Shown here: piece after piece, positions 2,932-42,999 of the stretch | Numbering within the stretch: the stretch's first letter is position 1 | Layout: each line of letters begins with the position of its first letter | DNA from: an uncultured virus (IMG/VR IMGVR_UViG_3300028173_000008) | Taxonomy: Duplodnaviria > Heunggongvirae > Uroviricota > Caudoviricetes | IMG/VR virus record: IMGVR_UViG_3300028173_000008 | Reading direction: 5' to 3' (one strand) | DNA length: 64,000 nt | Notes under the pieces: model-generated | What the model saw: only the letters and a program-made list of their open reading frames with translations | Database searches by the model: none | What the model was told of the DNA's origin: nothing | Program-made: the position numbers and the translations under genes

Positions 2932-3431
2932 AAGGGCTGGCTGTTCCCTTTCGGGGGTTCAGTCTGTGACGGGCCGTATGGGGTCCGTAGGAAACATCGG
3001 AGCAATCCGGTGGAAGGGGAGTCCTTGTCACAGGCCCCCGCCAGTCACCTCTCGGGGTGGTTGGTCCGTCCATGCAAGCCGTAGGTAGCCCGGTCAGGGC
3101 GGGTCGTCCACCAAAGGCGGCTCTAGTCCCGAGTCTGGGGTTGGCCCCACCGACAGGTGGGTGAAGCATGGCCTGTCAGCGATGGCAGTCATGCGAAGGA
3201 TAGGCGGGGACGCCTTGAGCCAACCAATCCAACTGGACGAAGGAGGATTCCCAAGCGGCAGTCGGTCAGTTTGAGGGGTGGGAGCCCTGAAGGCGGTCGG
3301 CATGTAGAGGGGCGAAGGGTGAAATCCCCGGAGTCCTGAAGACAGGGTAAAGCCCGCCGGGGCGAATACCAGAGGACGTGTTGCATTCCCCTCCTCAAAA
3401 GGGAAGGGAACGACTGGCAGGGCACGCCCTT
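2932..3431 (+). ncRNA. large (~500 nt) structured non-coding RNA
   Basis: no credible ORF; AAGGGC/GCCCTT ends pair; UUCG/GNRA-type hairpins; flanked by tRNAs. Confidence 0.55.
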
Positions 3432-3437
3432 ATGACA

Positions 3438-3510
3438 TGCGAATTAGCTCAGTTGGTAGAGCGCATCCTTCGTAGGGATGAGGTCGTTGGTTCAAGTCCA
3501 ACCCTTGCAA
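3438..3510 (+). tRNA. tRNA-Thr(CGT), imperfect acceptor stem
   Basis: good D, anticodon and T arms; 2 acceptor mismatches. Confidence 0.6.
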
Positions 3511-3845
3511 ACAAAGGAAAGACCCTGCCGGTCTGTGTGGTAAGTGACCTAATCCCGTCCCCGCAAGGGAAGGCGGGCCGGTGAAGCCCCCAAGGTGGAG
3601 CCGGTTGGTGGGAAGCTGAAGCGTAGGGGCGGCCACCCCTGCCGGATGTGGAAAGCCGATGCAGCACAGGCGACGAGGGAAACGCCACCCTCCAACAAAG
3701 GCGGTCACGACTGGCTACCGGGGAGACCCGGTGGACACGGGGAGAACTTGGCGGGGGACCGTCAAGGTAATGCCCTGAGAGGCCGGTTATGAAAACGGGT
3801 AGTCTCACCGTTCCTCATTCTCCCCTCCCTTCGGGGCGGGGACTA
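3511..3845 (+). ncRNA. ~330 nt structured non-coding RNA
   Basis: CCCC-GCAA-GGGG, CCGGG-gaga-CCCGG, CCC-TTCG-GGG hairpins; between tRNAs. Confidence 0.45.
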
Positions 3846-37298: not shown

Positions 37299-37664
37299 TG
37301 GTGGAGGTGCGGGGAATCGAACCCCGGTCCTAAGATGCCTACGCCAACGCACTACGCTCATTTCCCGTGTTTATCCCGCACGGGCAAGGTGCTTCGATCC
37401 TCAACGCACATGCTGCTGTTAGTCATCGCCTTCAGGTAGCCGCCTGCCCGCTATCCTGAACGCCAACCCGTTTCTGCTGTAACCTCACGCCCCGAATCGG
37501 GTGCTCTGACGTGAGAATGAAGCACCAGCACAGTCTTTCGACTACGCTGCCGCCTGCATCGGAAGGGTCTCGTTGGCAATTAAGCCTTTGCCGTCTGTAA
37601 CGCCCGACAGCACTCGGAACGAACGTTTAGCCTCGTACACCCCAGTCGAAACCAGTACACCCCC
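37299..37664 (-). ncRNA. ssrA: tmRNA, tag ANETLPMQAAA*
   Basis: GGGGGTGTACTGGTTTCGAC 5' end; GGTTCGATTCCCCGCACCTCCACCA 3' end; tag at 37577-37542. Confidence 0.95.
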
Positions 37665-40799: not shown

Positions 40800-40854
40800 A
40801 AAGTGCGACCGGGGGGAGTCGAACCCCCACGCCTCAAAGGCACCGGATTCTAAG

Positions 40855-40934
40855 TGGCTGAGGTGGGAGTCGAACCCACACGCCCTAAGCGCCCGCCTCT
40901 AAAACGGGTGCGTCTACCGTTCCGCCACTCAGCC
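40855..40934 (-). tRNA. tRNA-Leu(TAG), cassette cargo
   Basis: cloverleaf; ORF stop TGA inside acceptor strand. Confidence 0.88.
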
Positions 40935-41429
40935 TTTTTCTTGTTTGGTCACGGAGGTCAACCCTTTGCTATTACACCACCCAGGTTGTTGGGAGTGGCA
41001 GTTAGGGCACAGGAATCGTAAGTTTTCAGGGCGGTTGTCTAACCAGTCTCGGTTGATGTGGTCCACCTGTAGCATGAGGGGTTTCCCGACCCACACTCCC
41101 TCGATCCCACAAGATTCGCACGCATAGGGCCGCCCACTGTCAAGGAGAGCCCTCCGTAAGCGGTACGCTGCGGTACGCCTCCCTGTGTCCTTCTTTGACA
41201 GGGTAGTTAGCCACGGAGTCTTTCCCGGGCCTCCCTTATGGGCTGTTCCCTTGTTGGATCCTTGACCGTGGAAATGGACTGTGTCGAGTCCGTATTCCCG
41301 TACCTTACGGGTGATGTGCGTTTGTGTCCCGCCCGCCTGTTTCACCCCCAAATCTCGAAGCACGCCCGCCATGGAAGTGTTCTGTTGAACAAGTGGGGCT
41401 AGGATCTCTTTTGTGTAACGTCGTCCCAT
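40929..41429 (-). CDS. HNH endonuclease
   Basis: CESCG..LQVDHINRDWLDNRPENLRFLCPNCHSQ. Confidence 0.9.
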   Translation of the reverse strand: MGRRYTKEILAPLVQQNTSMAGVLRDLGVKQAGGTQTHITRKVREYGLDTVHFHGQGSNKGTAHKGGPGKTPWLTTLSKKDTGRRTAAYRLRRALLDSGRPYACESCGIEGVWVGKPLMLQVDHINRDWLDNRPENLRFLCPNCHSQQPGWCNSKGLTSVTKQEKG

Positions 41430-41496
41430 ACACAGCTTACGGTATAGGCTAGCAACCGGAACCGGCGTGTCTACCGTTTCACCACGGTCGCAAAGG

Positions 41497-42341
41497 ATGA
41501 CCACCCGTAGCCGGGATCCTGTTTTATGGACACATTCATCTAGTGGCCCCTACCCGTCCGCATAGCGCTGCTCACCCGCTCTTGGCCCAACCCCGATGCC
41601 GAGAGCGTTGCCCTGAAAAGAGCTTCTGCATTCCTTGGCGTGTAAGGCCGTGACGTTGGCAGAACAGATTGAGGGACGGGGTCACTTCGTGTTCAGCCCC
41701 GTCAGGAGAACGGACTTTGGGGTAGGGCTGCTTCTTCTTAGTGCGGCTGATCGCCGCCTTTTCCGCTTCCGTTGGGGAAGCCTTCCGACCACCCGATCCC
41801 ACAGCGTTCTTATTGCCCCGCTGCAAAAGTGACAGGGCTTGCTTCGTTTCTTCTGTATGCTTGTAACCCAGGCTGTTGCCTGCTTCTGGGAGGATGTTGT
41901 ACTTCTTGGCTTTCGGGGTCTTGTCCAACCACTCCTGTTCCTTCTCCAAGAGCTTGTCGTGGGCCGCCTGAACAAGCACAAAGAAGCAAATGTCCTCTTC
42001 ACCCCTCTTGGCAAAGGCTCGTTGTAAGGGGGTGTTATGGTGGGTGCCTTTTCGAAGAAGCCTCCCATGTGCTGAGAACCTCTTGTAGAGATCCACTGCG
42101 GACCCGATGTAGAGCTTCCCCGAAGCCCTACTTCTGATGGCATAGACACCGCTCTTACCGTGTAGCGCAGAATAAGGGGTACCTTTCATGGAAGGGTCCA
42201 ATTTCATAGGCCAAAGATACCACGTTCCTGTTTGGGTTGCACCCTCGGAAGTGCGAACGGCCTACGGCCTCCTTCCTTCAGCAGTGGTGTCCCGAGCTTC
42301 CTCACATCCCTTGCGGGGTAGTGCGTGCCCTCAGTGGTCAT
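41497..42341 (-). ncRNA. rnpB: RNase P RNA (reduced), interrupted by GIY-YIG ORF
   Basis: P1 ATGACCAC/GTGGTCAT; P2 GGGCAC/GTGTCC; P4 GAGGA-AGC(U)CGGGA / ACAGGA-TCCCGGCT with bulged U; CGGGTAGG L15-like; CTAGATGAATG. Confidence 0.8.
41572..42207 (-). CDS. GIY-YIG homing endonuclease with NUMOD3-like motif
   Basis: SGVYAI..YIGSA..KRF..H, EKEQ.WLD, YN, HTEETK. Confidence 0.9.
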   Translation of the reverse strand: MKLDPSMKGTPYSALHGKSGVYAIRSRASGKLYIGSAVDLYKRFSAHGRLLRKGTHHNTPLQRAFAKRGEEDICFFVLVQAAHDKLLEKEQEWLDKTPKAKKYNILPEAGNSLGYKHTEETKQALSLLQRGNKNAVGSGGRKASPTEAEKAAISRTKKKQPYPKVRSPDGAEHEVTPSLNLFCQRHGLTRQGMQKLFSGQRSRHRGWAKSG

Positions 42342-42425
42342 GGTGCCAGAGGGGGGACTCGAACCCCCACGCCTCAAGGACAGACGGTTTTGAACCGACC
42401 GCGTCTACCATTCCGCCACTCTGGC
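42341..42425 (-). tRNA. tRNA-Leu(CAA)
   Basis: cloverleaf, CCA. Confidence 0.88.
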
Positions 42426-42433
42426 AAGTAAGT

Positions 42434-42522
42434 TGGTGGAGGAGGTGGGATTCGAACCCACTCACCGCAACGCGGACCAGATTTACAGTCTGGCGTGACT
42501 CTCCAACTTCAACCGCTCCTCC
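42434..42522 (-). tRNA. tRNA-Tyr(GTA)
   Basis: cloverleaf, CCA. Confidence 0.85.
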
Positions 42523-42526
42523 AAAG

Positions 42527-42598
42527 TGGAAAGGGGTGGAATCGAACCACCGACACGGGGATTTTCAGTCCCCTGCTCTACCTCTGAGCTACCCCTCC
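42527..42598 (-). tRNA. tRNA-Phe(GAA)
   Basis: cloverleaf. Confidence 0.9.
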
Positions 42599-42999
42599 AT
42601 GCGTTTCCAGTCCCCGAACTCCTCCTTGCCGCCCCTGCACCCCCAGTCCGAGTCGATGACCAGGCGGGACGAGATCCCGCCACGGGGCCGGAGGTCCGCT
42701 ACGAGGCGCAACCGGGCCGGTTCATAGACCGCCACGAGATCCTCGTAGATGACGTTGATGAGGCGTTCGTAGGAGATCACCTTGGACCTGAAGGCCACCA
42801 CGTACTCCTTGAGTGCCTTCAGTTCGATGATCCAGTCCGCCGGGTAGAAGACCAACGTCAGGTGACCGAAGTCCGGTTGCTGTTTGACGCCCATGAACGT
42901 CAACTCCGGGATCTCCATCCTGATCTCGTACCCGTCTGGGTCGGGGTTCGGCAGCCTCTTCAGCTTGTCCTTCTCCGACCACTTGTCATGCTTGCCCAT
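42589..42999 (-). CDS. queF: QueF-like T-fold protein lacking the catalytic Cys
   Basis: PELTFMGVKQQPDF, IELKALKEY, SYE, PRGGI. Confidence 0.8.
   Translation of the reverse strand: MGKHDKWSEKDKLKRLPNPDPDGYEIRMEIPELTFMGVKQQPDFGHLTLVFYPADWIIELKALKEYVVAFRSKVISYERLINVIYEDLVAVYEPARLRLVADLRPRGGISSRLVIDSDWGCRGGKEEFGDWKRMEG

Follow-up and report, generated by a model that had tools for sequence, protein, structure and literature searches.

Ribonuclease P (RNase P) RNAs that do without most of the specificity domain (S-domain) are known from nature and from the laboratory. As described in the available part of PMC3579882, the type T RNase P RNA of Thermoproteaceae (RF02357) is a natural RNA of ~200 nucleotides (nt) without most of the S-domain, and engineered type A RNAs consisting only of the catalytic domain (C-domain) cleave precursor tRNA (pre-tRNA) without an S-domain at lower efficiency, according to an excerpt of PMC5839562. 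On the viral side, an excerpt of PMC3001073 describes an RNase P-like RNA of camelpox virus as inactive in vitro, and in the accessible portion of a megaphage paper (PMC8172020) the Rfam models found only tRNAs and transfer-messenger RNA (tmRNA). Neither a phage-encoded RNase P RNA nor an open reading frame (ORF) inside one turned up in our searches of the full-text literature, which cover subscription journals poorly. Here we describe a locus on the minus strand, at 42341-41497, of a 64,000-nt stretch of uncultured phage DNA (the window; bases 30126-94125 of the 106,830-base IMG/VR virus record IMGVR_UViG_3300028173_000008) which, judging from its sequence, very probably encodes an S-domain-less RNase P RNA. 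The locus measures 845 nt, and since ~640 nt of this are an insert, the RNA itself comes to ~205 nt, close to the ~210 nt estimated in the original prediction, which had been made from the bare letters of the window. The explanation that best covers the locus as a whole, and one we consider highly likely, is that such an RNA has received, where J15/16 meets P16, an intron-less insertion encoding a GIY-YIG homing endonuclease.

The identification is carried by a covariance model, R1, which has 167 positions and 27 pairs, extends from CR-I to the 3' strand of P4 and was trained on 19 uninterrupted homologues with the window excluded. When the flanks were cut at the insert, R1 matched the 5' flank at 42304-42226 with 61.5 bits (E-value 3.1e-17; positions 1-85 of the model, 3'-truncated) and the 3' flank at 41590-41506 with 45.6 bits (E-value 3.1e-13; positions 80-167, 5'-truncated), and a search of the whole window returned the same two places at 48.4 and 34.9 bits (E-values 3.7e-11 and 1e-7). 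The cut flanks occupy adjoining stretches of the model, which fixes the insert between the end of J15/16 at 42228 and the 5' strand of P16 at 41587. The original prediction of a phage RNase P RNA carrying a GIY-YIG ORF is thus borne out by R1 on both halves, by uninterrupted homologues that match Rfam and by Pfam and PDB matches for the ORF. Its proposal that the ORF occupies the site of the S-domain has to be abandoned, as the R1 alignments show a hairpin at that site (42276-42247) and the insert in the catalytic domain.

Pairing between the halves points in the same direction. All 30 of the 30 pairs that span the insert (in P1, P2, P4, P6 and P15) are standard, compared with 10-13 after a shift of the 3' partners by 1-3 bases; 2000 shuffled versions of the 3' half gave a mean of 10.8 (standard deviation 2.4, maximum 19). 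All conserved positions of the RNA are intact. P1, P2, P4 with its bulged U, a GGU-type loop and CUAGAUGAAUG had been recognized from the letters alone and are indeed present on the minus strand, the three helices with 8/8, 6/6 and 8/8 pairs (Table 1). The last codons of the ORF, GGGTGA, had also been taken for the 3' strand of P5; that strand is instead a GGUG upstream of the ORF, and the last codons overlap P16, P17 and L17. The label P6 is taken, by position, from type A RNAs and stands for the pseudoknot between the bases 3' of P5 and the loop of P17. In the hairpin that replaces the S-domain (alignment columns 110-162), unpaired bases are conserved throughout the family: GGAG follows the 5' strand, and UCG..UA..AC precedes the 3' strand. 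These may be a minimal substitute for a lost contact.

Table 1. Features of the split RNase P RNA-like locus and its surroundings, in window coordinates, followed by relatives flanked by tRNAs in the coordinates of their own loci.
Feature	Position	Strand	Evidence or remark
RNase P RNA-like gene, whole split locus	42341-41497	-	845 nt including insert
5' half of mini RNase P RNA	42228..42341	-	R1 covariance model and pair count
3' half of mini RNase P RNA	41497..41587	-	R1 covariance model and pair count
P1	42341-42334 / 41504-41497	-	8/8 pairs
P2	42330-42325 / 41533-41528	-	6/6 pairs
P3 hairpin, GCAA loop	~42323-42303	-	
CR-I and P4 5' strand	42303-42290	-	
P4, U42295 bulged	42298-42290 / 41516-41509	-	8/8 pairs
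P5	5' strand 42289-42286, 3' strand GGUG 42243-42240	-	4/4 pairs
P6	42284-42280 / 41572-41568	-	5/5 pairs
Hairpin replacing S-domain, ~30-40 nt	42276-42247	-	between P5 strands, as in aligned relatives
P15	42236-42234 / 41550-41548	-	3/3 pairs
J15/16 AAACAG	42233-42228	-	
P16	41587-41584 (GGCC) / 41559-41556	-	3/4 pairs, one G-A mismatch
P17	41580-41577 / 41567-41564	-	4/4 pairs
L17 GGUGAGCAG	41576-41568	-	includes P6 3' strand
L15/16 GGGUA	41555-41551	-	
J18/2 CUAGAUGAAUG	41543-41533	-	
Insert, ~640 nt, borders ambiguous by 1-2 G	41588..42227	-	abutting R1 matches
GIY-YIG homing endonuclease ORF, 636 nt, 211 amino acids	42207-41572	-	ORF list, Pfam, PDB
HNH-type endonuclease ORF directly downstream	40929..41504	-	Pfam HNH 30.3 bits, HNH_3 26 bits
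tRNA-Leu(CAA), CCA encoded	42341..42425	-	ARAGORN; Rfam tRNA 54.2 bits
tmRNA	37299-37664	-	121.5 bits; tag peptide ANETLPMQAAA
Relative L265	1128-1488	-	flanked by tRNAs
Relative L248	1261-1543		flanked by tRNAs
Relative L243	1260-1592		flanked by tRNAs
Relative L241	1248-1568		flanked by tRNAs

Uninterrupted relatives occur in other phages. When phage records were searched with distant blastn, the 5' flank had a single match, in the 642-kb uncultured phage LR756502.1, where an uninterrupted stretch of 205 nt aligns with the Rfam model RNaseP_arch from end to end with the S-domain skipped (32.4 bits, E-value 1.2e-6). A two-motif pattern scan of IMG/VR yielded 46 loci, about half of which were judged homologues by eye, and Rfam searches of 20 of these returned RNase P matches in 12, to RF00010 in eight (46.2-71.7 bits, E-values 3e-11 to 7e-20) and to RF00373 in four (23.9-48.6 bits). 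All 12 are aligned end to end with ~140 S-domain model positions skipped, and the alignment of one of the loci, L265, assigns P15, P16 and P17. Together with LR756502.1, 13 of 21 loci match Rfam RNase P models, at 24-72 bits and in every case short of the gathering threshold.

Membership in the family was counted with R1 at E-values up to 0.001, by which 24 of the 46 pattern-matched viral loci belong to it, two of them (L263 and L264) being the window's own phage, as do three further viral loci (L001, L051 and L078). Nineteen of the matching loci form the training set of R1 and match by construction; outside it, L250, L078, L259, L224 and L255 score 73-159 bits, and L233 is matched in two pieces of 52.5 and 32.5 bits. 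Among the 80 matches listed from metagenomes, at least ten are compact members that score 80.6-158.7 bits over 156-181 nt, one of them the window's phage, and at least seven are long low scorers (21-41 bits) of 287-398 nt, the size of cellular RNase P RNAs. Bacterial and archaeal genomes gave at least 11 R1 matches among the 80 listed, all at or below 40.5 bits, and since most of these span 290-400 nt they fit ordinary cellular RNase P RNAs; no compact high scorer was found among these 80. A protein gene within the RNase P-like RNA was seen only in the window's phage, among the loci compared and the matches listed.

The relatives, too, keep company with tRNA genes, which lie within 1.3 kb in 11 of the 20 loci. 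In L265, L248, L243 and L241 a tRNA starts 0-6 nt past the end of the RNA, and in L265 another tRNA ends where the RNase P-like RNA begins. With tRNAs at such distances, RNase P could generate the 3' end of the RNA in cleaving the tRNA that follows, and 3' processing of the preceding tRNA could generate the 5' end. Rfam also matches tRNA-Sec in arrays beside the mini RNase P RNA, in L224 (2469-2563, plus strand; 64.3 bits, above the gathering threshold of 47) and, below that threshold, in L240 (308-389) and L243 (2465-2546); these may be phage selenocysteine tRNAs or long-arm tRNAs.

The fold of the family was assessed on a MAFFT alignment of the 19 uninterrupted homologues without the window, from which RNAalifold unaided recovers P4 with its bulge, P5, P15 and P16. 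The structure that was scored comprised P2, P4, P5, the stem in place of the S-domain, P15, P16, P17 and the P6 pseudoknot, with P1 and P3 left out of the count because the alignment is poor there. Standard pairs fill 89.5% of the alignment cells, compared with 31-41% when the partners are slid by 1-3 columns; changes on both sides occur at 30 of 38 pairs, compared with 17-24 in the slid controls; and the covariation score of 0.615 was reached by none of 500 shuffles, whose mean was 0.186. P4 is paired in 98.7% of cells, with changes on both sides at six of its eight pairs, and in P2 five of six pairs have such changes. As predicted from this covariation, the family fold is a type A-like catalytic domain (P1-P6, P15-P17) in which one hairpin stands in place of P7-P14.

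Length differences between relatives concentrate in one part of this fold. Between P16 and P17, L259 (1300-1531) carries a 33-nt hairpin, which the near-identical L257 (1186-1384) lacks, and L233 (1300-1614) carries ~150 AT-rich bases, without an ORF, in the distal P16-P17 arm. By this comparison of sequences the P16-P17 arm is a hot spot of length change, and its distal part is apparently expandable in relatives.

The insert consists of a 20-nt leader and most of the ORF, whose length of 636 nt was given correctly by the original prediction. Pfam assigns the ORF to GIY-YIG (PF01541; 43.7 bits, E-value 3.5e-11, cut-off 22.6), NUMOD3 is found just under its cut-off (19.6 against 20.4 bits), and residues 18-106 align with residues 2-92 of the catalytic domain of I-TevI (PDB 1mk0, 1ln0; E-value 1.8e-11). 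The alignment covers the GIY, YIG, Arg, Glu and Asn positions, which we take to be the catalytic ones. The last five codons including the stop are native ribozyme sequence (5' strands of P16 and P17, and L17), the UGA stop (41574-41572) falls in the conserved loop L17, GGUGAGCAG, and its A at 41572 is the first base of the 3' strand of P6. Relatives of the endonuclease in phage records and IMG/VR share no more than 46% identity with it. R1 found no RNase P half at 50 viral loci that encode such relatives (best E-value 0.95), and none is present around the best phage-record match, in LR745208.1, so this nuclease lineage is not seen to specialize on the RNase P gene. A stem that would close the ORF, between UUUGGCC in the leader and GGCCAAG at the ORF end, was considered and dropped: it is absent from the constrained minimum free energy (MFE) fold, it competes with P16, and seven pairs between two 20-nt stretches are not beyond chance.

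The nuclease gene downstream is of the HNH type, so that two nuclease families are represented by adjacent genes in the tRNA array. As listed, the HNH ORF starts at a GTG (41504) and overlaps the 3' strand of P1; an internal ATG 25 codons further in would be the likelier start.

Several results weigh against the identification of the RNA. Rfam gives no RNase P match in the whole window at its gathering thresholds, nor any in 41300-42500 at E-values up to 10 or in either flank cut out; RF00010 has no match on the whole 106.8-kb record; all 12 matching relatives score below the Rfam gathering threshold (100 bits for RF00010); and the remaining eight of the 20 scanned viral loci show no RNase P match at E-values up to 0.01. 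If the flanks were plain tRNA-array spacers around a free-standing endonuclease gene, with a likeness to RNase P that arose by chance, the silence of Rfam in the window would follow, and free-standing GIY-YIG genes are found in phage tRNA clusters, as exemplified by SegB of T-even phages in the available part of PMC13096335. We ascribe the failure of Rfam at the locus to its models, which are unable to span the insert and to score either half by itself. Chance likeness is already refuted by the R1 matches, with E-values of 3e-17 and 3e-13 and abutting model ranges, and by the 30/30 long-range pairs compared with 10.8 +/- 2.4 in shuffles. Another explanation would make the insert a self-splicing intron, of group I or similar, which contains the endonuclease and is removed to restore the ribozyme. 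Homing endonucleases in RNA genes are usually housed in introns, which speaks for it; against it, Rfam detects no intron family at E-values up to 10 in 41300-42500, as the original prediction had anticipated in seeing no intron core, and the insert has 20 nt ahead of the ATG and nothing beyond the ORF. With such a short leader and an ORF that ends within the ribozyme, an intron core (~200 nt) would need to fit wholly in coding sequence. For these reasons we regard the insert as intron-less and an intron as very improbable.

The genotype with the insert is widely distributed. Twenty seawater or marine metagenome runs from 17 studies, all of them DNA, contain at least 75% of the sampled words of the stretch, two other viral contigs, of 73 kb and 48.6 kb, match the window with 100% identity for 2.6-3.0 kb including the insert, and a metagenome contig (L365) returns the same pair of R1 scores as the window. 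Both insert junctions are bridged, with 0 differences, by contigs from four seawater or marine runs. In the DNA contigs of these four runs, from which rare variants drop out, we saw no joint across the insert, and no empty-site allele was seen in this lineage, of which a specific 23-mer occurs only in the two identical viral contigs. Even L383, the closest of the relatives, is divergent. Comparison of the best-matching relatives of the two halves gave no clear sign of co-conversion of the flanks. No second copy of an RNase P RNA was found in the 106.8-kb, 73-kb and 48.6-kb records, each ~9-20% of the genome, and rnpA (PF00825) has no match in the 106.8-kb record, ~20% of the genome.

That the endonuclease killed the ribozyme on insertion, leaving a fresh pseudogene with undecayed halves in a phage that relies on host RNase P, is an explanation we come close to expecting. 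Several points favour it or argue against continued activity of the RNA. The insert adjoins the CCA-binding loop L15/16 at the foot of P16, not at a helix tip, and P16 itself has a G-A mismatch and only three of its four pairs. Folding fails to bring the halves together, as the unconstrained MFE fold of an 861-nt RNA forms 0 of 21 nested core pairs and a fold with the core enforced has no terminal stem closing the ORF. Termination in L17 would place a ribosome over P16, P17 and P6. All copies seen are identical and so provide no evidence of selection since the insertion, the G+C content of the ORF (0.55, with 0.63 at third codon positions) is below that of the window (0.61), a weak hint of recent arrival, and many phages with tRNA arrays do without an RNase P RNA of their own. 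A pseudogene is harder to reconcile with the intact conserved positions and the full set of inter-half pairs, with the spread of the genotype across the runs and studies given above, and with the lack of an intact second copy in the three partial records. The same observations, namely the intact core and P6, the widespread genotype and the lack of a second copy, together with an arm that is expandable in relatives, argue for activity, as does the behaviour of engineered type A RNAs, which stay active without P16-P17 and, when reduced to the C-domain, still cleave. On balance we consider it quite possible, though somewhat doubtful, that the split RNA is still catalytically useful, whether in one piece or in two.

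How a split RNase P RNA could work can be sketched as follows. No sigma-70-like promoter and no terminator-like site were found in 40800-42700, which is consistent with co-transcription with the tRNAs, and the lack of a promoter gives no support to a separately transcribed 3' half. The whole tRNA array, ORF included, would form a single precursor transcript, the 5' end of the RNA would be set by 3' processing of the abutting tRNA-Leu, and the nuclease would be translated from the array precursor. The nuclease might then spread by cutting uninterrupted copies in co-infecting related phages, which would present it with a stable homing target because ribozyme sequences are conserved. The halves of the ribozyme would dock through P1, P2, P4, P6 and P15, with the ORF looped out or already cut away, and the ribozyme, with RnpA of the host, would trim the phage pre-tRNAs. 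In this tentative scheme, which we would not yet call probable, one transcript would serve both as messenger of the endonuclease and as working RNase P, with a ~205-nt core around an unspliced insert or as two pieces held together by the same five helices.

The setting of the locus is that of a large phage rich in tRNA genes. CheckV puts the completeness of the 106.8-kb record at ~20%, from which a genome of roughly 0.5 Mb follows. ARAGORN and Rfam find 51 tRNA genes in the window, in two arrays, and the RNase P-like RNA gene sits within the array on the minus strand, where the 3' end of tRNA-Leu(CAA), at 42341, abuts or overlaps the first base of P1. The tmRNA (Table 1) and the 51 tRNA genes give a measure of the translation machinery that the phage carries. 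By comparison of the ARAGORN and Rfam ends, the CCA end is encoded in some tRNA genes of the arrays and absent from others, a mixture that bears on a ribozyme with a CCA-pairing GGU loop and without an S-domain. A GOLLD RNA (3371-3811, plus strand; 154.4 bits, gathering threshold 150) heads the tRNA array of the plus strand, and a tRNA-Thr(CGU) gene (3438-3510) is embedded in it.

Taken as a family, these RNAs suggest that phages with large tRNA arrays bring their own minimal RNase P RNA, which raises the question of why a virus would carry a tRNA-processing enzyme. Standard annotation misses the mini RNase P RNA of phages because its scores fall below the Rfam thresholds. A natural ribozyme made only of the catalytic domain would offer a minimal system for the study of substrate recognition without an S-domain, an endonuclease gene in a trans-acting ribozyme without an intron would be a test of the amount of foreign sequence that a ribozyme fold tolerates, and the locus would be a case of conserved ribozyme sequence serving as a homing target. 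Should the split RNA prove to work, it might, as we suggest with due reserve, be the first natural case of an RNase P RNA that hosts a protein gene, within an undescribed family of S-domain-less phage RNAs.

Of the described systems, class A RNase P RNA (RF00010) resembles the phage RNA in P1-P3, the bulged U of P4, CR-I and CR-V, P5, J5/15 and P15 with its GGGUA-type loop, as well as in P16, P17 with the pseudoknot between L17 and J5/7 (P6) and J18/2, and relatives align with it from end to end. Class A RNA possesses P7-P14, whereas the phage family has a single hairpin of ~30-60 nt, and the phage RNAs are 180-260 nt long, score below the RF00010 gathering threshold and are phage-borne in tRNA arrays. 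Because the phage RNA has neither the S-domain nor the gathering score of RF00010, it is best called an S-domain-less variant; the RNA of the window differs further from class A in being interrupted by a protein-coding gene. Type T RNA, unlike the phage RNA, comes from archaea and functions with archaeal proteins, and its core sequence is different. RF02357 gives only a noise match inside the ORF in the window (14.3 bits, E-value 2), and among the relatives the clan competition, in which only the best match per clan is listed, goes to RF00010 or RF00373. The type A constructs reduced to the C-domain are laboratory-made, whereas the phage family is a natural, covarying lineage.

The arrangement of the insert also has counterparts. 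Endonuclease ORFs of group I introns are likewise nuclease ORFs nested in a ribozyme, which take their 3' end and stop codon from folded RNA. Group I introns self-splice, whereas the host ribozyme here is RNase P, and since RNase P is no self-splicing intron the ORF would not be removed from the RNA. The Seg endonucleases of T-even phages, among them SegB in a tRNA cluster (per the portion of PMC13096335 available), and I-TevI belong to the same enzyme family, and the setting in a tRNA cluster and the lack of an intron are shared as well; Seg genes lie between genes, whereas the GIY-YIG gene of the window lies inside the gene of a structured RNA.

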